Source: Collinsella sp. (GTDB lineage: Bacteria; Actinomycetota; Coriobacteriia; Coriobacteriales; Coriobacteriaceae). Taken from it: a stretch of 64,000 nt of DNA. Below the pieces are notes generated by a model. It had not been told where the DNA came from. It ran no database searches and saw only the letters and a program-made list of their open reading frames with translations. The DNA lies in NCBI GenBank assembly GCA_036304905.1, contig JAXIXR010000003.1:857-64856 (forward strand), given 5' to 3'. Below are positions 1,967-51,980 of the stretch, in pieces; within the stretch, counting starts at the first letter, position 1, and each line of letters begins with the position of its first letter. A program made the position numbers and the translations under genes.

Positions 1967-2045
1967 TAAAAAACGGCACCCGACTCCCCTCTCTTAGTCG
2001 CCAAACCTCGAAGAGGAGCCGAGCACCCCAAACAAGGAGTTTATC

Positions 2046-2288
2046 ATGCATCTTGCAGATGACCCCAAGGTTGACGCCATTTCCGCAGGCATCAACCTTC
2101 ATCGCACTGGTCCCAAGCGTATCTTGAGCCGTCTCGATGTTCAGATTCTCACCGGCATTGGCCAGTCGAGCGCCATTAAGCTCATGAAGTCGACGCACCA
2201 TTGCTTCCGCATCGCCAACCAGTATTTTGTCATGGAAGAAGACCTCATCGCCTATTTCAGGACTTTGGCTGAAGAGGCGAACGAGTAA
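2046..2288 (+). CDS. Small DNA-binding protein, possibly excisionase/AlpA-like HTH
   Basis: 80 aa, AAGGAG RBS, first gene of the tightly coupled module. Segment LDVQILTGIGQSSAIKLMK looks like a helix-turn-helix. Function inferred from size and position only. Confidence 0.4.
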   Translation: MHLADDPKVDAISAGINLHRTGPKRILSRLDVQILTGIGQSSAIKLMKSTHHCFRIANQYFVMEEDLIAYFRTLAEEANE

Positions 2289-3184
2289 TGCAGTGCCCGG
2301 CCCCCAACCCTCTCGTTTTCGAATCCGATAGGCTCGATGAGCACCTCAGCGCCCTTAGGGGTGACCAACCTATCGCCCTCTTCGGGCTCAAGGCCCTTAA
2401 CGACATCCTCGGCGGAGTCCATCCCGGGCTCGATTATGCCATCGGCACCGGTCCCGGCAGGGGCAAGACGACCTTGGCCTTGCAGGAGGCCGACAAGCTT
2501 GCGAACGACAGTCACCCAGTAATCTATGTCTCCGCCGAGCTTCCCGCGCATAAGCTCTTGGAGAAGAGCCTTGCACGACTCAGCGGAGGCAAGCTTGCCC
2601 TTTCCGAGGTCGCGGACGCGGCGGCGGCAGACCATCCCAAGCACGAGGCCTTCGAGGCTGCTCTCGACAGGTATCGCAGCTGTATCGCCCCGAATCTCTG
2701 TATTACCGGCCCGTTGAACACCGTTGAACTCTCGAACCTCGTTGGGCTGATAGCACGTGAGCGCAACGAGGCCCCTATCGTTTTCATCGACTATCTCCAA
2801 CTCCTCGCCTGCGGTATCACGGCGGGACAGCAGTTCATCGACGAGCGCTTGGCAATCACAGCGTGCGTAAAGGGCTTGCGCGAAATATCAAACCTCTACG
2901 GCTCGCCAGTCATCGCCCTGAGCTCGACCACGCGCGAGTCCTACAAGTCTGGCAAGTCGAGCAAGCCCAACCTCGGCATGTTCGGCGGCTCTTCGACGGT
3001 CGAGTACAGCTTCGACTCCGTTCTTTTTCTTGCCGACGATGACGGAAAACCCGACTTCCCTTTTGAGGCCCCCGCGAGCGGCACCCCGCTCAAGCTCGTT
3101 GCCCTCAAGAATCGCTACGGCACGTTAGGCGAAGCTCGGCTCGACTTCGACGGAGCCCACGCTACCTTCCTCGATAGGGGCTAG
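2288..3184 (+). CDS. DnaB C-terminal-like / RecA-fold ATPase (replication or maintenance protein of the element)
   Basis: Walker A GTGPGRGKTT and Walker B-like IVFIDYLQLL. TAATG overlap with the upstream gene. Confidence 0.7.
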   Translation: MQCPAPNPLVFESDRLDEHLSALRGDQPIALFGLKALNDILGGVHPGLDYAIGTGPGRGKTTLALQEADKLANDSHPVIYVSAELPAHKLLEKSLARLSGGKLALSEVADAAAADHPKHEAFEAALDRYRSCIAPNLCITGPLNTVELSNLVGLIARERNEAPIVFIDYLQLLACGITAGQQFIDERLAITACVKGLREISNLYGSPVIALSSTTRESYKSGKSSKPNLGMFGGSSTVEYSFDSVLFLADDDGKPDFPFEAPASGTPLKLVALKNRYGTLGEARLDFDGAHATFLDRG

Positions 3185-3187
3185 GCG

Positions 3188-3538
3188 ATGCGCGGCACTA
3201 GCAGGACCGCGCATATCAACGTTCGTATGACCGATGGAGAGCGGGCCGAAATCGTGGCCCGCTCTTCCTCTTTCGGCATGCCCCCATCAACGTTTTTGCG
3301 CGAGGCCGCCCTCCGAATCGGCGAGAAGCCCGTCAAGGTCGCCGACGAGTCGACCCTCCGGCAAATGCTCGTCGAGATGAAGCGGCAGGGCAACAACCTC
3401 AACCAAGCTATGCGCTCCATAAACGCCTATGGCATCGACCGGCAAACGGCCGTCCAGCTTGAAAACGCCGTCCAGTTGATATCGAGCACAGCTTCCGAAC
3501 TCTCAACCCTTCTGTCGAAAGCAAAGGAGCGGCTATGA
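3188..3538 (+). CDS. MobC-family relaxosome accessory protein
   Basis: INVRMTDGERAEIVARS (RHH-like) followed by GNNLNQAMRSINAYG, typical of mobilisation protein MobC. Position is just upstream of the coupling protein and relaxase. Confidence 0.75.
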   Translation: MRGTSRTAHINVRMTDGERAEIVARSSSFGMPPSTFLREAALRIGEKPVKVADESTLRQMLVEMKRQGNNLNQAMRSINAYGIDRQTAVQLENAVQLISSTASELSTLLSKAKERL

Positions 3539-5451
3539 AAAGCAAGATGTTCACCGCCCTCATATCATCCGTCTTCATTGCATTCCTCGTCTGCCCAATC
3601 CTTGCCGCCCCTATCGGCGATATTGCCTCCGGGATCATGCCCGACGCGTCAGCCCTCCCCTCTGCGCTCGATGCGGCCACGGTTCTCGGCTGGTGGCTCT
3701 CGGGCGCATTCATCGCCCATATCACGGGGACCGTCCTCACCTTCCTCCTCACGCTCTGCATCTGCTCCCTCGTTGCCTATTCGAGCGCCCTCAACTCGCG
3801 TGCCGACGATGGCGGCGTGCTCGGCAATGCTTGCATCAAGACGGGCCGCAATGCGGTGAAAGGTTCGATTACATGGGACGGCTCGGCTAACCCCTCTTCA
3901 CGCGGGTTCGTCTACGGGTTCACCAGATGGCTCGGCAAACCCTGCTACCTCTTCGAGCCAAAGAAGATGGTCTATGTTTCCGGGTCCACTGGCTCTGGCA
4001 AGTCCCGCTTCCTCTACCTGCCCTCAATCGATTTGCTCTCGTACGGCGACGGCGCAAACGGCTCCGAGCCCGCGACCCTCGTCGTCTCCGACGTCAAGAA
4101 CGAGCTCATAGAGCTCACGGGTGACGAGCTGGCCCGACGCGGCTACAACGTCCTCCTGCTCGACACGCAGCGACCCTATCGAGGCCAGAGGTTCAACCCG
4201 CTCAAGCAGGTCATCGACCTCCACGCCGAAAGCCGCGACCAAGAAGCCGAGCAGGCGGCTGACACCATTGCGGAGCTCGTGGTGCAGGATGACGAGAACG
4301 GCAAGGGCTCGCACTGGACCGCATCCGCGCGGGGCCTCCTGTCTGCCCTCGTCTTGCTGGTCTCCATGTCCGATGAATGCCCCAAGGAAGCAAAGCACCT
4401 TGCGACCGTCTGCGAGGTGCTGGACCGTGGCACCGAGGCAGAGGGTGACGACCCGGCCGAGCCACTCAAGAGCGTTTTCCGCGCCCTACCAAGCAGACAC
4501 CCCGCTAAAAACAGAGCCTCGCAGTTCGTCTCCTCGGGCGGCAACGAGCTCAGAAGCATCCTCTCGACGCTCAAGGTGGCGCTGCGCCCGTTCTCGTCGG
4601 CCCCAGTCGCATGGATGACGTCCGGGTCCGACATCGACCCTCGCGCGGTTCTTGAAACCAAGAGCGCCGTATTCCTCCATATGCTCGACGAGGGCTCGCC
4701 ATACAACTGCATAGCGGCGATATTCCTCTCCCAGCTCTGGGAATCCGTCCAAATCGTCGCCGATTCCAACGGCGGAAGACTTCCGCGCCCCGTCCAGATT
4801 CTCGGCGACGAATGGGGCAACCTGCCCCGCATCGAATGCCTGCCCGCCCTCCTTTCGCTTGGAAGGTCGTTCCAGATTTACTGGACGGGGGCAACGCAAG
4901 ATATATCCCAGCTTAATAAATACGGAGAGAGGGACGGACGGAGGAAGATTCTCGCGAACTGCGGCGTAAAAGTCGCCATGAAGCTCGCCGAGGAGGAAGA
5001 CCGCCGATACTTCACGGAGCTCATCGGCAAGACCACCCGCCACACGCAGGGCACGAGCAGCAGCAAGGCGGCGTCGGGTTCGTCGGCATCGACCTCCTAC
5101 AGCGAGAGCGCAGACGACGTGATACACGCGTGGGAATGGCGCGACATGGCCCCGGACAGGGACGGGATAATCGTCGTCAAGCACGCGGATAACGGAATAC
5201 CCGCCGAGCGGGCCGGGGTCTTCCGCTCACCCGTCGCCGATTGCACCAAGACGCCCACGAAGGAGCACTTCGACCTCGGGACTCCGGAGCACGAGGCGGA
5301 GAAGCGCCGTGCCTATCAAAAGCAACTGGACGAGGCCGCTGCCGAGAAGATGGGCGAACGCGTCGGCCTCTGGTGCCCCAAGTGGCCCGAGCCGAAGAAG
5401 AAAGCCGAGATCCAGCCGACCGGCAAATTCAGCGGCCTTTCGCTCGACTAG
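3535..5451 (+). CDS. Type IV secretion coupling protein (VirD4/TraG/TraD family)
   Basis: N-terminal TM helices, Walker A GSTGSGKS, Walker B region VQILGDEWGNLP. ATGA overlap with mobC. Confidence 0.85.
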   Translation: MKSKMFTALISSVFIAFLVCPILAAPIGDIASGIMPDASALPSALDAATVLGWWLSGAFIAHITGTVLTFLLTLCICSLVAYSSALNSRADDGGVLGNACIKTGRNAVKGSITWDGSANPSSRGFVYGFTRWLGKPCYLFEPKKMVYVSGSTGSGKSRFLYLPSIDLLSYGDGANGSEPATLVVSDVKNELIELTGDELARRGYNVLLLDTQRPYRGQRFNPLKQVIDLHAESRDQEAEQAADTIAELVVQDDENGKGSHWTASARGLLSALVLLVSMSDECPKEAKHLATVCEVLDRGTEAEGDDPAEPLKSVFRALPSRHPAKNRASQFVSSGGNELRSILSTLKVALRPFSSAPVAWMTSGSDIDPRAVLETKSAVFLHMLDEGSPYNCIAAIFLSQLWESVQIVADSNGGRLPRPVQILGDEWGNLPRIECLPALLSLGRSFQIYWTGATQDISQLNKYGERDGRRKILANCGVKVAMKLAEEEDRRYFTELIGKTTRHTQGTSSSKAASGSSASTSYSESADDVIHAWEWRDMAPDRDGIIVVKHADNGIPAERAGVFRSPVADCTKTPTKEHFDLGTPEHEAEKRRAYQKQLDEAAAEKMGERVGLWCPKWPEPKKKAEIQPTGKFSGLSLD

Positions 5452-5460
5452 GGAGGACCC

Positions 5461-6399
5461 ATGACAGCGATTAAACAGACAAGCGTGTGCAGCGAGAAGC
5501 ACCTCTCCCGCCTCAAGGACTATCTCTCATGGGACAGGGACAAAGCTCTCGCGCACGACACGCAGAACATCATCAGTGAAGAGCGCTGGTTCCAAGAGAT
5601 GGCAGACACGAGGAAGGCCATGGGGCATGACAAGCCGGGGAAGGCGGGGGCGAAGTGCACCTACATGCAGCATCAGATACTTGGTTTCCTCCCCGACGAG
5701 TGCGACCTCAACGGCGGGAAGATGACGCCGGAGATGTGCATGCGATACGCACGCGACTACGTGGCCGAGCGCTATCCGAACCAAGAGGTCGTCATAGTTC
5801 TGCATCGCGAGCGCTGCCGCTCCGACGACACCGACCGCTATGCCGTGCACCTCGGCATCAACCGCAGCGACCTTGAGACGGGCAGGAGGCTCGACGAGGG
5901 CCCCGCACGCAAAGCCGCTGCCGCACGCGTGAAAACCGTTCGCACCTTGGACGAAAGGTATGGGCTCAAGCAGCTTGAGCGCGGCAAGGCCAACTCGCGC
6001 GTCCACGCGAGACAGCCGGGCAGGGAGGAACGCGACATGGCCCGCAAGGGGCAGGCCGAGCGCTCCGAGAACGCCCGCGTCCGCGTGGCGGTCGCCCGTC
6101 GCGTCGAGGAGGTCGGACGAATGAGGGACTGCCCCGACCGCATGGCCGAGCTCGACCGGCGGCTCAGGCGAGACGGCATCGAGCTCGCGAGGTCGAAGGG
6201 CGGGAGCCTCCAGTACCGCTTCTTCTCGAAGGCCCTCGGGGCCGTGCGGAAAGTCAACGGCGGCAGGCTCGGCTTCGCGGTCGACCGCTCAACCGGCCTC
6301 GTCGTCCGCTTCACGCTGCGCGGGATCGCGACGGCGATGAGGGCGTTCTGGGAACTTGAGCGCAAGTCGTGGGAGAACCAGAACGGGCGAGGGGACTGA
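5461..6399 (+). CDS. Relaxase / mobilization nuclease (MobA/VirD2-type)
   Basis: N-terminal nuclease-type region with histidine motif VIVLHRE...DRYAVHLGINR. Arg/Glu-rich C-terminal tail. Last gene of the mob module. Confidence 0.8.
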   Translation: MTAIKQTSVCSEKHLSRLKDYLSWDRDKALAHDTQNIISEERWFQEMADTRKAMGHDKPGKAGAKCTYMQHQILGFLPDECDLNGGKMTPEMCMRYARDYVAERYPNQEVVIVLHRERCRSDDTDRYAVHLGINRSDLETGRRLDEGPARKAAAARVKTVRTLDERYGLKQLERGKANSRVHARQPGREERDMARKGQAERSENARVRVAVARRVEEVGRMRDCPDRMAELDRRLRRDGIELARSKGGSLQYRFFSKALGAVRKVNGGRLGFAVDRSTGLVVRFTLRGIATAMRAFWELERKSWENQNGRGD

Positions 6400-6407
6400 G
6401 CGCTTGG

Positions 6408-6433
6408 GCCGGGACGCAACAAGCGTCCCGGCT
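6408..6433 (+). terminator. Intrinsic terminator after relaxase
   Basis: GCCGGGACGC-aacaa-GCGTCCCGGC followed by TTATTATT. Confidence 0.75.
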
Positions 6434-6439
6434 TATTAT

Positions 6440-6857
6440 TGGCGGGAGCGACTTCGGAGCGGTTCGCCCTCCGCCGCAGGCGGCAAGATGATTCCGTGCA
6501 ACGGAATCCATATCTTGCCTGCACGGAGCGAGCCGGTTGCCGAGGCAACGCGAGCCCGGGCAGGTGAGCGCCGGTTGAGCCGACGCCGAGGAGACGCGAC
6601 CCATGGGGAGCGTCGCACGACGGTGCTCGGCGACCCGGCGCGAGAGGCCCCGTCCGGCGAACGGCGGAGCGATGGCGACCTCTGGAAGCCATCGAGCGCA
6701 GCCGTTCGGCGGGCGGGGCCGGTGTGAGCGGAGGCGGACGGAAACGCGATCCTTGGGAGCGTTGCAGGAAGCCGTAGCGAGAGCGACGCCACGCGTCGCG
6801 GGGGTCCCGCTTATGGGCGGGACCCATCGGCCGCAAGGCCGATCGATGAACATTAAG
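6440..6857 (+). other. ORF-free, hairpin-dense GC-rich block (candidate structured RNA, single-strand origin or oriT)
   Basis: Only Arg/Pro/Ser/Gly-rich shadow ORFs on both strands. Perfect helices at 6490-6508, 6670-6694, 6783-6799, 6802-6825 and 6826-6843 (GCAA loop). Long-range 20-position helix 6646-6665 with 6701-6720. Confidence 0.4.
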
Positions 6858-6885
6858 AAAGCCCCGGCCATTTGGTCGGGGCTTT
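6858..6885. terminator. Hairpin terminator downstream of the minus-strand surface-protein gene (possibly bidirectional)
   Basis: AAAGCCCCG-gccatttggt-CGGGGCTTT, 9-bp stem flanked by A/T runs on both sides. Confidence 0.6.
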
Positions 6886-6922
6886 CCTTGCCTGAAACAG
6901 ACGATTGCCTTGCTCTTTCTAG

Positions 6923-8254
6923 TTACTTCGTGGCACCGCAGGAAGAGCACTTATATCCAGTGGTCACGGTCTCGTCCCATGCATCGCGCACCTGCACCTG
7001 CTCGTCATAGGCCGCTTGGTCGGTCACGGTTTCATAATACCCCTGCTTTACAGTCACATAGGTAGAGTGATAGCCTCCGCAATTACCACCATTCAAAAGA
7101 GAGTTGTTCATATGCCCCCAAGGGTCAGACGTGATATCCGCACCGCACTGGTTGCAGATATAGTGTTCCTCCGTCACCGCGTCATGCCATACCTGATGCG
7201 TCACCGCGTCGTGGTGGACGGTCTTGTACTGAGCGTCGTGATGGACGGTTTTTGTCTGGGCAACCCAGTTGTGCTGATGCGCCGGGGTGTCATCCTTTTT
7301 CGATGAACTGCCTGAATTGGAGTTTGAGCCGGAGTTGCTGCTGTTGCCGCCACTCGGCTTGCTATCGGATTTTCCCTCGTCTTTCTTGGAGGATGAATTG
7401 CTCTTGTTTCCAGAATTATCGGAGCTGCCTGTGGTCTTCCCATTATCCTTCTTGGAGCCGTTGGATGAACCTGAATCGCTCTTCTTGCTGTCGGAAGTTT
7501 CCGGGGTCTTCGCGTCGGACTTCTCTTCCTTGGCGGACTCCTGAGCCTTCTCGGTCTCCTTCTCGACGGCATCGGTATCGGCGTTCGGGTTCTTCTTGAT
7601 GTTGTCCTCGAACTTCTTCACGACCTCAGCGCCCTTGTCCCCGGTCAGGGTGGAATCGCCCTTCTTCACGGCTTCCGCAACGTCCTTGGCAATGGCTGTC
7701 AAGTCATCTTTCGTTACCTTGTCCGCATCCACCTTTTCGAGCGTGATGACGGTACCGTTCGTTTTCTTGTCATCTTTCCCGGCCTTGACCTTACTGGACG
7801 CGGCCTTATAGGTAGAGCCGTCCGCGTTCACCGGCGGGATGAGGGTGACGGTGTAGGTGCCGGACTTGCCGACCTTCACGGTCACCTGCTTGTTCGCGGC
7901 GATGGCGGTGTAGAAGTCCACCTTCCCGTTCGCATCCTCTATATGGGCGATAACGGGCGTGGAAGTGTCCGCATCCCAGCCGTCAGCCTTTACCTCAAGG
8001 GTAAGTACCATGTCCTGCTTCTCATCGTCCTTTGACTGGGACACCGCAGGGGCATTGGAATCTCCCGTCCAACTGGCATGTGAGATGGCGTAAGCCCCGC
8101 CGCCGATGAGAAGCGCCGCACAGAGGATTCCCGCACCAGCCGCGCAGACCTGCTTACGGGAGAACTCGCGCCCGAAGAGCACGAGCGGCTTCTTAGCATT
8201 CTCCTCCTTCGTCGAATCCGATCGTTTAATTTCCCGAGAGCCGTACTCATCCAT
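6923..8254 (-). CDS. Membrane-anchored protein with low-complexity Ser/Asn/Lys linker and C-terminal His-repeat / Cys-rich module
   Basis: ORF 6923-8272 begins with TTG. ATG at 8254 has GGAG 7 nt upstream. One TM helix (VCAAGAGILCAALLIGGGAYAI), a long SNSGS/KKD tract, then TVHHDA x3 and CNQC...CGG...CSSC. Confidence 0.6.
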   Translation of the reverse strand: MDEYGSREIKRSDSTKEENAKKPLVLFGREFSRKQVCAAGAGILCAALLIGGGAYAISHASWTGDSNAPAVSQSKDDEKQDMVLTLEVKADGWDADTSTPVIAHIEDANGKVDFYTAIAANKQVTVKVGKSGTYTVTLIPPVNADGSTYKAASSKVKAGKDDKKTNGTVITLEKVDADKVTKDDLTAIAKDVAEAVKKGDSTLTGDKGAEVVKKFEDNIKKNPNADTDAVEKETEKAQESAKEEKSDAKTPETSDSKKSDSGSSNGSKKDNGKTTGSSDNSGNKSNSSSKKDEGKSDSKPSGGNSSNSGSNSNSGSSSKKDDTPAHQHNWVAQTKTVHHDAQYKTVHHDAVTHQVWHDAVTEEHYICNQCGADITSDPWGHMNNSLLNGGNCGGYHSTYVTVKQGYYETVTDQAAYDEQVQVRDAWDETVTTGYKCSSCGATK

Positions 8255-8311
8255 CGGCAAACTCCAGTTCAATTATCAGAGGTCTAACTTAGCGGCATTG
8301 TATTCCAAATT

Positions 8312-8337
8312 GTCACTTATATAGGTGTGACTCATAT
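8312..8337. promoter_or_regulatory. Abutting 13-nt direct repeat in the divergent promoter region, candidate operator of the XRE regulator
   Basis: GTCACTTATATAG immediately followed by GTGACTCATATAG (11/13 identical), about 45 nt upstream of the XRE start. Confidence 0.3.
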
Positions 8338-8380
8338 AGAACCGAAACGAATCATTGGCACAACCTATTAGGAGGTGCCG

Positions 8381-8611
8381 ATGACTCAGTTAGATATAAA
8401 GATGAGGGTCGGGCTGAGAATAAAAGAGTTGAGAAACGAACTCGGCTATAGCCAGGAAACTATTGCGTACTCTATCGAAATGTCCCGAACATACTTCGCT
8501 GAGGTCGAAACCGGCAAGCGGAACATATCAATTGAAAATATCGACCGGATTGCACAAGGGCTCGGCGTTTCCCTGAAAGAGTTCTTCAACTCTGACCTCT
8601 TTGTCAAATAA
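8381..8611 (+). CDS. XRE-family helix-turn-helix transcriptional regulator
   Basis: LRIKELRNELGYSQETIAYSIEMSRTYFAEVETGKRNISIENIDRIAQGLGVSLKEFF. AGGAGG 5 nt before ATG 8381. Confidence 0.85.
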   Translation: MTQLDIKMRVGLRIKELRNELGYSQETIAYSIEMSRTYFAEVETGKRNISIENIDRIAQGLGVSLKEFFNSDLFVK

Positions 8612-8931
8612 GACAGAGCACAAATCGAATTAGAACGAAAGGACAGACTTCCAACGTCATCTAATGTCCAACAGGGCTTCAATAGCAATCAAAAGGTATC
8701 AAAGGGCTGCCGGAAACTGGCTTGCCCTACGGCAACGACAGCCTAGGTTTTCAACGCTTTCCATAGCCGGAGGGTCCCACATCCAGCCCGTAGGCTGTGG
8801 GAAGGGTTGAAAACCGGCCCTGAGGGTGAAACTCTGGGGTGAAATATGAAGTCGCGATGTTTTCCCCATAGAATGAACTTTCACCCCTTTTTCACCCCTC
8901 AGGCGGGTTTTACCCCTATCCATACAGAAAC

Positions 8932-8960
8932 AGGTCAGACGATTTATACCGTCTGACCTG
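8932..8960 (-). terminator. Hairpin just 3' of the tRNA gene
   Basis: AGGTCAGACG-atttatac-CGTCTGACCT. On the minus strand it is followed by GTTTCTGT. Confidence 0.55.
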
Positions 8961-8969
8961 CTATTTCTC

Positions 8970-9045
8970 TGGTGCCCCCGGGCGGATTCGAACCGTCGAC
9001 ACCCGCTTTAGGAGAGCGGTGCTCTATCCCCTGAGCTACGGAGGC
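8970..9045 (-). tRNA. tRNA-Arg (anticodon CCT), CCA encoded
   Basis: Hand-folded cloverleaf: acceptor GCCTCCG/CGGGGGC, D arm GCTC-AGGGGATA-GAGC, anticodon arm CCGCT-CTCCTAA-AGCGG, T arm GACGG-TTCGAAT-CCGCC (one A.C mismatch), then ACCA. Confidence 0.9.
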
Positions 9046-9273
9046 ATGTTGTACTAGTGTAGCAGATTTGCCCCTTGGCCATGTAGCGCATGGCCACTCA
9101 TCAAGCAGGCTCTGCAGCGAATTATCGCCGTAGAGCCTTCTCAATAACGGAAAATTATAATCCAGAATAACACAAAATAATGGGATGGGGTTTCCTCTAA
9201 CCACATGTAAGGGAAATTCCATCCCGGTATTCGGCTAAAAAATGGGACAAGCTTTCCCAACTGGCGCTCAAAA

Positions 9274-51019: not shown

Positions 51020-51583
51020 ATGGAGCGCATGGAGGGGCTCTACCAGAACACGCTGGCCGAGACGCAGGAGCTGCTCGACCCCACGCAGCTCGACCACGCC
51101 ACCAAACTCATCGCGAACGCCCGACAGGTCGACATCTACACGGGCTCGCACAATCTCTATCCAGCGGGAATGTTCCGCGATCGCCTGCTCTCCGTCGGTA
51201 AAAGCGCGACGTGCCACGACAATGTCGAAGCCCAGGTGCGCACGGCGCTCGCCTCGGGCCCCGACCATGTGGCAATCGTCATCTCCTACAGCGGCCTTGC
51301 CCCCAACCTCAAGGACATCTTACCGATCCTCAGCAGTCGGCATGTCCCGGTCATCGTTATCGGCACGCCTCATTGCGCACGCATTCACCCTGGCTTTGCC
51401 GCCTACCTCACGGTGAGTGACCACGAGAGCATGACGCATCGCATCACGCAGTTCGCGAGCCACATCGCCGTGCAATACGTGCTCGATTCGCTCTACAGCA
51501 GCTACTTCGCCAAAGACTACGCCCGCTGCTCCGAGTTCCTAGAGCGCTCGTTTCCCTACACCCGCCTGCCCGGACTCAAGTAG
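51020..51583 (+). CDS. SIS-domain protein resembling an RpiR/MurR regulator that lacks the N-terminal HTH domain
   Basis: RQVDIYTGSHNLYPAGMFRDRLLSVG...VAIVISYSG is a SIS fold. Only about 135 nt separate it from the divergent EIIA gene, so there is no room for an HTH_6 domain. Start is 50978 or 51020. Confidence 0.6.
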   Translation: MERMEGLYQNTLAETQELLDPTQLDHATKLIANARQVDIYTGSHNLYPAGMFRDRLLSVGKSATCHDNVEAQVRTALASGPDHVAIVISYSGLAPNLKDILPILSSRHVPVIVIGTPHCARIHPGFAAYLTVSDHESMTHRITQFASHIAVQYVLDSLYSSYFAKDYARCSEFLERSFPYTRLPGLK

Positions 51584-51690
51584 CGACGAGCGTGGATTTT
51601 TGGACGCTTAACTAACGAGCGTGGATAATCTTCCACTTTGAGGCCGCACACAGGCCAAAACCGGGAGATTATCCACGCTCATTTCTGCCT

Positions 51691-51980
51691 AGTCATTGGG
51701 GACGTTCTTAAACGACCAGTCAAACAAGAACGTCCCCAACGACTACCCCGAGGAGTGTCCCAAACTGCCGGCAGAAAAGGAACGTCCCCAGGTGCCGCAT
51801 CCGGAGCAAGGCAACGCCGCAGGTAGAGGACGGACAGCGAGCGGGCCGCATTTGAGACAAGGTGACGTGAAACGAAAGGGCGCTGACCTTCTGGTCGCGC
51901 CCTTGAAGTTGAACGTCAGATTGTCCAAATGCGGCCCGCGCAGCGTCGAGCTGTTACGGCGTTTGGTAAAACGCCGTAAC
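51691..51980 (-). repeat. Composite 3'-flank repeat, copy 2 (51751-51980 homologous to 49278-49514; 51691-51745 is a GGGGACGTTCTT hairpin module)
   Basis: Outer stem GCGGGCCGCATTTG (51841-51854) with CAAATGCGGCCCGC (51926-51939). Core is nearly identical to copy 1. Confidence 0.75.

Follow-up and report, generated by a model that had tools for sequence, protein, structure and literature searches.

A candidate origin of transfer and a conserved structured leader behind the relaxase gene of a Collinsella integrative mobilizable element

Introduction

The origins of transfer (oriT) used by RP4 TraI, VirD2, R64 NikB-NikA and R1162 MobA share a simple layout, in which an inverted repeat lies 5' of a short nick region on the transferred strand. 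For RP4 TraI and VirD2, the MOBP consensus of this region is 5'-(C/T)ATCCTG(C/T)-3'; cleavage follows the G, and the inverted repeat directly precedes the region (PMC3772185). Two systems also inform on what lies on the other side of the nick. In ICEBs1, the single-strand origin (sso) sso1 is located immediately downstream of nicK and oriT. Its authors argued that an sso just 3' of the nick leaves the attachment site (att) single-stranded until the molecule is recircularised, which prevents the integration of broken molecules (PMC4595007). In the leading region of F, structured single-stranded DNA (ssDNA) primes and delays the synthesis of the complementary strand (bioRxiv 10.64898/2026.01.09.698686). 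Here, we analyse a hairpin-rich block at positions 6440-6843 of a 64,000-nucleotide stretch of Collinsella sp. DNA (hereafter the window). The block follows the relaxase gene of a ~9.4-kb integrative mobilizable element, and we consider it fairly probable that it is the cis-acting transfer region of this element, made of an oriT and of a structured single-strand leader.

The candidate oriT of this element resembles those of the MOBP and MOBQ families: its predicted nick is 8-9 nt after the repeat, and it is linked to genes encoding a PF03432 relaxase and a NikA-like ribbon-helix-helix protein. It differs from them in closing the operon on its 3' side, after the relaxase gene, instead of preceding that gene, and in having the nick motif itself paired in an outer stem (GGCAAGAT/ATCTTGCC). 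The hexamer is here ATCTTG, and the divergence of the relaxase precludes a firm MOB assignment. In its remainder, the block resembles sso1 of ICEBs1, as well as ssoA, ssoT and ssoU, in being a non-coding, highly folded and apparently strand-biased region of a few hundred nucleotides. Like sso1, it belongs to an integrative element and stands right after the relaxase gene, just 3' of a nick that is here a predicted one; the rationale of an att kept single-stranded until recircularisation (PMC4595007) would apply to both. With Frpo/ssp of F it shares stable stem-loops in what is here predicted to be the first DNA to enter the recipient. Judging from these comparisons, the oriT would join a known class, and we found no described counterpart of the modular structured leader.

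Results

A structured and conserved block behind the relaxase gene

The island is inserted in a Collinsella tRNA-Arg gene and lacks mating-pore genes. Its order is int, an orf, a DnaB-like gene, a NikA-like gene, the type IV coupling protein (T4CP) gene, the relaxase gene, the block, variable cargo and tRNA-Arg. The initial annotation of this locus, made from the letters of the window, had described the block as free of open reading frames (ORFs) and as unusually rich in exact helices. Re-reading positions 6200-7100 helix by helix recovered all of them: the 8-bp helix 6490-6497/6501-6508 with a GCA loop, the small helix 6536-6540/6545-6549, the long-range helix 6646-6665/6701-6720 (20 positions, of which 18 are Watson-Crick, one is T-G and one is a G-G mismatch), the helix 6670-6676/6688-6694, and the hairpins 6783-6799, 6802-6825 and 6826-6843. 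Relative to shuffled sequences, the RNA fold of 6400-6900 is far more stable than expected on the + strand (-300.5 kcal/mol, z = -9.4) and on the - strand (-271.4 kcal/mol, z = -7.5). The DNA fold of 6518-6850 gives z = -5.1 and z = -4.8, respectively. The density of structure is indeed higher here than in the rest of the window: in a scan of the 64 kb with 305 sliding segments of 418 nt, the segment that begins at 6480 is the most stable by raw energy and the most extreme by GC-corrected residual (z = -4.4). No ORF is conserved, and several 1- and 2-nt indels within the block separate close relatives.

The block had also been described as bracketed by two terminators. The hairpins are real, and neither passes a terminator scan because their T tracts are weak. 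The left one, H0 (6408-6432, + strand, GCCGGGACGC/GCGTCCCGGC with loop AACAA), had been taken for the relaxase terminator; of the two it alone is conserved, with a stem that varies among relatives, a loop fixed to one type (AACAA, AACAG or AGCAA) and a T run that is not kept. The right one (6858-6885) is a terminator-like hairpin of the convergent cargo gene. It is found only in loci of the window type, is absent from most relatives, and is part of the variable cargo, outside the conserved element.

We found relatives of the island at the identical chromosomal site in 80 Collinsella loci. A module spanning 3094-6843, i.e. the end of the helicase gene, nikA, the T4CP gene, the relaxase gene and the block, shows 80-83% conservation in all 80 loci, whereas the DNA from 6844 to ~8704 is swapped among them for several (at least four) unrelated cargo sets. 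Homology stops sharply at 6843/6844, right after the hairpin 6826-6843. Since the module is conserved everywhere while the cargo is exchanged, we conclude from this pattern that the block is part of the mobilization backbone and not of the cargo.

Nucleotide diversity (pi) in 71 Collinsella sequences leads to a quantitative statement. In the relaxase gene, pi is 0.041, 0.034 and 0.153 at codon positions 1, 2 and 3. In the block (6440-6843) it is 0.049, a third of the value at third codon positions; it falls to 0.002 in the oriT hairpin (6482-6519) and rises to 0.36 beyond 6843. The block is thus under purifying selection of about the strength acting on non-synonymous positions, and this selection spans all 400 nt, including the unpaired boxes.

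A candidate origin of transfer

The candidate oriT core occupies positions 6482-6519 of the + strand. An outer stem (GGCAAGAT, 6482-6489, with ATCTTGCC, 6512-6519) encloses the inverted repeat GATTCCGT (6490-6497)/ACGGAATC (6501-6508) and its GCA loop, so that the layout reads GGCAAGAT-GATTCCGT-GCA-ACGGAATC-CAT-ATCTTGCC. Each locus has one copy of it, on the strand of the relaxase gene; in the window it has a single occurrence, on the + strand, for none expected by chance. In relatives whose relaxases are 65-73% identical to this one, the core (ACGGAATCCATATCTTGC) is the sole near-identical stretch. The predicted nick region, TATCTTG/C (6511-6518, + strand, the slash marking the nick), would be cut after G6517 and before C6518, at a distance of 9 nt from the inverted repeat. 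The candidate region (TATCTTGC) agrees with the MOBP consensus at 7/8 positions, a T replacing the second C of the core hexamer, and it is invariant in 22/22 aligned family members. Minimal elements of the L083 type retain the inverted repeat and the nick region (CATATCTTGCC) and nothing else of the block. Exact matches to YATCCTGY occur in the element only within genes, at 1407 and 4284 on the - strand.

Rearranged relatives break at the same place. The deletion variant L194 corresponds to its relative L096 minus 1.88 kb, beginning right after ...ATCTTGC, and in L096 the right breakpoint is preceded by the nick-like CATATACGGCTTGC. When L119 is compared with L089, unrelated DNA is joined directly after ...ATCTTGCC. 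These breakpoints are consistent with relaxase-mediated or with microhomology-mediated deletion, and they would bring indirect support to the predicted cleavage at TATCTTG/C. We place nic between G6517 and C6518 on the + strand because of the layout of the inverted repeat, the match to the consensus and the breakpoints of L194 and L119. Taken together, the sequence evidence makes it very likely that 6482-6519 is the oriT and that the + strand is the one transferred. An oriT in the block was among the proposals of the initial annotation. This proposal stands, at a different place and with a different motif: the RSF1010-like nick core on which it leaned (CGCCCTCC, 6465-6472) is in an indel-variable stretch and is not conserved, and the better candidate is the hairpin 6490-6508 followed by TATCTTG/C.

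The relaxase itself is informative up to a point. It has a weak match to NCBIfam MobP1, and its fold model (pLDDT 63, medium confidence) is nearest to the relaxase domains of MobA of R1162, NES and TraI of pKM101, with weak matches. Enzymes of this type bind a hairpin and cleave ~8 nt 3' of it. Searches of the PDB sequences with the relaxase and with a 12-sequence profile returned no match, and a literature search on ATCTTG nick sites and on Collinsella mobilizable elements returned nothing relevant.

The association between relaxase and core also holds in metagenomes. A scan of metagenomes for the core motif gave at least 120 loci, and 83 of those listed have the inverted repeat. The relaxase gene is 5' of the core in 74/74 listed loci with a relaxase match, at 100-330 nt from its end to the core with one case at ~1.5 kb. 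All the loci fetched in which the relaxase is only 65-76% identical have an ORF-free gap of ~430-750 nt after it. This gap is GC-rich in all the distant loci that we fetched but L083, where the core motif alone is kept, and in most of them it is followed by convergent cargo, often restriction or defence genes.

Several observations around the core deserve mention in their own right. On the + strand, sequence upstream of the nick motif pairs with it in every case, by differing solutions: GC-rich classes use GGCAAGAT/ATCTTGCC, L083 uses GGGGAGGCA/TGCCTCCCC, and in L090 an upstream GGGGAGG... pairs with GCCTCCCC just 3' of the nick. The H0 loop (GCAACAAG) has TGCAAC/GCAAC in common with the loop region of the inverted repeat (GTGCAAC, 6497-6503), and elements of the L086 type carry GCAACAG within the stem of the first hairpin instead of its loop; this common sequence may be a recognition element for a protein. 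Three metagenome contigs (L149, L157 and L166) carry the full 18-nt core in an AT-rich context, with a 7-bp inverted repeat GATTCCG-AAAA-ACGGAATC. No relaxase, T4CP or NikA homolog is detectable on these contigs, whose core may be an orphan oriT of a low-GC host. Finally, we considered an oriT upstream of nikA. The only intergenic inverted repeat between 1900 and 3250 has 12-bp arms (AAGGTTGACGCC/GGCATCAACCTT) and is located at 2067-2099, upstream of the DnaB-like gene. We rejected it as oriT because it is missing from many relatives that retain the 3094-6843 module. It is kept only in relatives that share 1976-3094, and may serve the mobilization operon as operator or promoter.

Modules and covarying helices around the predicted nick

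Upstream of the core, on the + strand like all the following parts, box M1 (GGGAGCGACTTCGGAGCGGTTCGCC, 6444-6468) is conserved and contains two copies of GAGCG. All GC-rich classes have it, on the upstream side of the core at 47-83 nt, and low-GC classes lack it. It is followed, directly 5' of the oriT hairpin, by hairpin H1 (CCGCC-GCA-GGCGG, 6471-6483), whose arms covary among classes (CCGCC/GGCGG, CCGCCC/GGGCGG, CCCCGGC/GCCGGGG, CCCGGC/GCCGGG, CCCGC/GCGGG) around loops GCA, GAA, GAGA or TTCG; its + strand variants include four G-T pairs against one A-C. On the other side of the core, the 5' arm of helix H3 (CCTGC 6518-6522/GCAGG 6560-6564) begins at the predicted nick, and the helix encloses the hairpin 6536-6549. 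Its closing stem covaries as well (CCTGC/GCAGG, CCCGC/GCGGG, CCTCCC/GGGAGG, CCATCC/GGATGG, TGTCCCG/CGGGACA, TCGCCGC/GCGGCGA), and (GG)TGAGC always comes directly after it.

The DNA 3' of the predicted nick reads as two diverged repeat units of ~160 nt. Each is opened by a GTGAGCG box (6564-6570 and 6724-6730, 160 nt apart) and contains a small hairpin GCGACC-N-GGGAGC (6596-6611, with a second copy at 6746-6760), possibly with tandem G-A pairs, of which one to three copies are found downstream of the nick in distant classes. The unpaired boxes between helices (GCGAGAG, GGYGTGAGCGGAG and (C/T)AGCGAGAGCG) are nearly invariant across classes, GCGAGAG being conserved 5' of the big helices in all of them, and the box (T/C)AGCGAGAGCG (6775-6785) includes TAGCGA. 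The conserved block is closed by the three terminal hairpins 6783-6799, 6802-6825 and 6826-6843. Within Collinsella their stems are invariant and their loops variable; in distant classes unrelated sequences form hairpins at the same position.

P-long (6646-6720) is a long hairpin whose internal loops are conserved and whose apex is the hairpin 6670-6694. A covariance model, R1, recovers it whole in 16 sequences from several classes, oriented as the nicked strand. At least two Watson-Crick types are found in 15/28 pairs, and the cells of the alignment count 410 Watson-Crick, 18 G-T and 4 A-C pairs. The score falls from 111 bits to 35 when the reverse strand is used. On either side of the apical hairpin stands a copy of GAGCG (6667-6698); the two change jointly to GAATG in the L084, L086, L089, L105 and L085 classes (GGAGCGATGG...CCATCGAGCG to GGAATGATGG...CCATCGAATG), and the two copies are unable to pair with one another. 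Relatives thus show both conservation and compensatory changes of the helices (H1, H3 and P-long).

The initial annotation had held, from a single T-G pair, that only the + strand can fold. Tests on diverse sequences do favour the + strand, and the support is weaker than had been assumed. The + strand is more stable than the - strand in 25/25 representatives with RNA parameters and in 24/25 with DNA parameters, the sole exception being the deletion variant L119. In helices that most classes form with Watson-Crick pairs, the + strand shows more G-T than A-C, at a ratio of ~9 to 1 for H1, the inverted repeat and H3 and of 18 to 4 for P-long. The motif GAGCG favours the + strand as well, with 10 copies there and none on the - strand; 0/2000 shuffles reach 10 (mean 3.1, maximum 8).

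Genes, insertion site and cargo of the element

The integrase gene runs off the start of the window and ends at 1125 (+ strand); in the corresponding stretch of L005 (2084-3665), a 100%-identical locus, it encodes 432 aa. It is followed on the + strand by genes for an unknown protein (1142-1966), a DnaB-like ATPase (2288-3184), the NikA-like accessory protein (3188-3538), the T4CP (3535-5451) and the 312-aa relaxase (5461-6399; Pfam PF03432, E 1.3e-6). Pfam PF21983, PF02534 and PF12696 jointly cover the NikA-like and T4CP pair (3188-5451). After the structured block (6440-6843, + strand) come a 449-aa gene of unknown function (6923-8272, - strand), a gene for an XRE-type regulator (8375-8611, + strand) and tRNA-Arg(CCT), called as a tRNA at 8973-9045 on the - strand. 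To the right, the island ends with att, a 47-bp direct repeat in the 3' part of this tRNA gene (8968-9014). A second exact copy lies 456 nt to the left of the window start, as read in L005; therefore the window begins within the island.

The slot for cargo exchange (6844-8704) carries in distant relatives (L081-L087) mostly - strand restriction or defence genes, of the GmrSD/HNH, Mrr and MmeI types as well as DNA methylases. Two loci with a 90%-identical relaxase and block, L042 and L080, come from records labelled Alloprevotella sp. and Sodaliphilus sp. (Bacteroidota), which indicates either a binning error or transfer across phyla. Elsewhere in the window, the second most over-structured part (z = -3.8) is an ORF-free gap of ~400 nt at 51583-51980. 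It contains inverted repeats with arms of 26 nt (51614/51658), 20 nt (51690/51726) and 14 nt (51841/51926, perfect), and has no match in Rfam.

Discussion

Our results suggest a scheme in which the block acts in cis during transfer. The relaxase, probably aided by the NikA-like protein, would recognise the 8-bp inverted repeat and cut the + strand at TATCTTG/C, between 6517 and 6518. The + strand would then be exported 5' to 3' through the type IV secretion system of a helper element. The recipient would receive 6518-6843 first, followed by the cargo, att and int, and then by the mobilization genes and the inverted repeat, which, arriving last, would serve recircularisation. The ~330-nt leader would fold as ssDNA into two units of ~160 nt, each made of a GTGAGCG box, a small GCGACC...GGGAGC hairpin, a GCGAGAG box and GC-rich hairpins, and would offer a single-strand origin, or priming platform, for the synthesis of the complementary strand on the incoming one. 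Synthesis begun just 3' of the nick would halt at the nick until the strand is recircularised. If synthesis is blocked in this way, att would become double-stranded only in an intact circle.

A single-strand origin had been one of the initial proposals for the block. By position, strand and conservation of structure, a role of this kind is the best-supported reading of 6518-6843, and we put it forward tentatively, by analogy. What did not hold is similarity to known sso. The difference from sso1 and ssoA-type origins is that no similarity to plasmid sso and no conserved CS-6 in a terminal loop are found here. Moreover, the relaxase appears here to be a HUH enzyme of MOBP/Q-like type, and NicK of ICEBs1 is of the Rep_trans type. 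Frpo/ssp differs too: no -35/-10 hexamers were found here, the region is GC-rich, the host is an actinobacterium, and transcription from this leader would head to the nick, away from the cargo genes. One might speculate that the leader is the founding example of an undescribed modular family of structured ssDNA, a novel kind of single-strand origin or priming platform placed directly 3' of the nick, in tRNA-integrated islands of gut Coriobacteriia that carry restriction or defence cargo; we regard this as possible and would not press it further. The building blocks of such a family, if it exists, might be the GTGAGCG and GCGAGAG boxes, the GCGACC...GGGAGC hairpins and a covarying hairpin of ~75 nt.

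Several observations speak against an oriT followed by a single-strand leader and must be weighed. The predicted nick motif is ATCTTG and not the canonical ATCCTG, and the MOB family of the relaxase is only weakly assignable. The hexamer TAGCGA (6775-6780), which had been likened to a CS-6 box, is CAGCGA in most relatives and is part of a linker, not of a terminal loop. A blastn search of the block against PLSDB (72,556 plasmids) gave no match, known sso included. As to an Frpo-type promoter, no sigma-70-like -35/-10 pair was found in 6300-9100 on either strand. With the Collinsella alignment alone, RNAalifold run on both strands also found 124 compatible pairs on the - strand, and the 62 pairs shared between strands show no asymmetry. 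The strand data cannot separate ssDNA from RNA either, because the + strand, predicted to be the one transferred, is also sense for the relaxase operon. Lastly, low-GC members of the oriT family have no leader, including L090, which has NikA, T4CP and DnaB-like genes; hence the leader is not essential for transfer and is an accessory module. We also considered that M1 and the leader might be coupled to the presence of nikA, and rejected this idea since L090 has nikA and neither feature.

The block could instead act as RNA, either as a long folded 3' untranslated region of the relaxase operon or as a separate non-coding RNA (ncRNA), with a role in mRNA stability, in the regulation of transfer or against the convergent cargo transcript. 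The strong folding biased to the sense strand and the covarying helices fit this idea, as do classic RNA tetraloops: GCAA at 6833-6836 and, in relatives, C(UUCG)G and GAGA. Yet a search of Rfam 15 with the window and eight diverse homologous loci returned tRNAs only. No family matched the block at its gathering score, the best sub-threshold matches reaching 20-24 bits for gathering scores of 34-90, mostly on the terminator hairpin of the cargo. Nor did the promoter scan, which uses a consensus of the sigma-70 type only, find a site in 6300-9100 on either strand, and after H0 there is no room for one. The 3' end has no conserved terminator, and the most conserved piece of the block resembles an inverted repeat with a nick site and not an RNA motif. 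Many of the loops are GNA triloops closed by C-G (CGCAG, CGAAG), and such C-GNA-G triloops are typical of stable DNA mini-hairpins, not of RNA. An RNA would also leave the deletion breakpoints at the nick motif without an account. The version of this idea in the initial annotation, an ncRNA carried as cargo, is the least supported of its three proposals, given that the block is backbone and has neither its own promoter, nor a conserved terminator, nor a match in Rfam. We keep a structured RNA as a rival that we find unlikely.

It is about equally improbable that the whole 400 nt are an assembly site for the relaxosome, active as double-stranded DNA (dsDNA) in the donor and with no role as ssDNA in the recipient. 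In the donor the palindromes, like the GAGCG and GTGAGCG boxes, would be binding sites for the NikA-like protein, for the T4CP or for the DnaB-like helicase. The short boxes are strictly oriented, as expected under this explanation (GAGCG, 10 copies on + and 0 on -). In RP4 and R64 accessory proteins bind upstream of the nick, which is where M1 is found, and RP4 TraK covers ~180 bp on the leading side. However, compensatory changes keep the pairing while the sequences of the helices change completely, which points to selection on pairing within the strand and not on a sequence to be bound. G-T is tolerated on the + strand far more than A-C. Besides, L090 has NikA, the T4CP and the DnaB-like gene and no such region.

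Two further explanations fare worse. The hairpin cluster might be a site for recombination or cargo capture, or a stack of terminators or REP-like palindromes at a module junction, since the boundary between conserved and variable DNA falls right after the last hairpin (6843/6844) and several unrelated cargo sets follow it. But the window has no further copy of the hairpins, this relaxase family alone carries the block, all 400 nt including the unpaired boxes are under purifying selection, and the hairpins fail the terminator scan, which leaves this explanation very little room. A protein-coding gene concealed by a frameshift can practically be dismissed: long shadow ORFs do cross the block on both strands, but the many 1- and 2-nt indels among close relatives break every frame, and variation falls in loops and compensating stem positions instead of third codon positions.

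Collinsella is a common genus of the human gut, and this family of islands is frequent in gut metagenomes (at least 120 matches); at a single tRNA site it exchanges genes for restriction-modification and other kinds of defence. If our placement of the oriT and of the nick is right, the polarity of transfer of the element becomes predictable. The cargo, mostly encoded on the - strand, would then enter right after the structured leader, and the incoming strand would be its template. To our knowledge, the conversion of transferred single strands into duplex is barely known outside F-like plasmids and ICEBs1. Hence, a conserved, covarying leader at the predicted nick of an actinobacterial element would provide a concrete and clonable candidate for the step from ssDNA to duplex.

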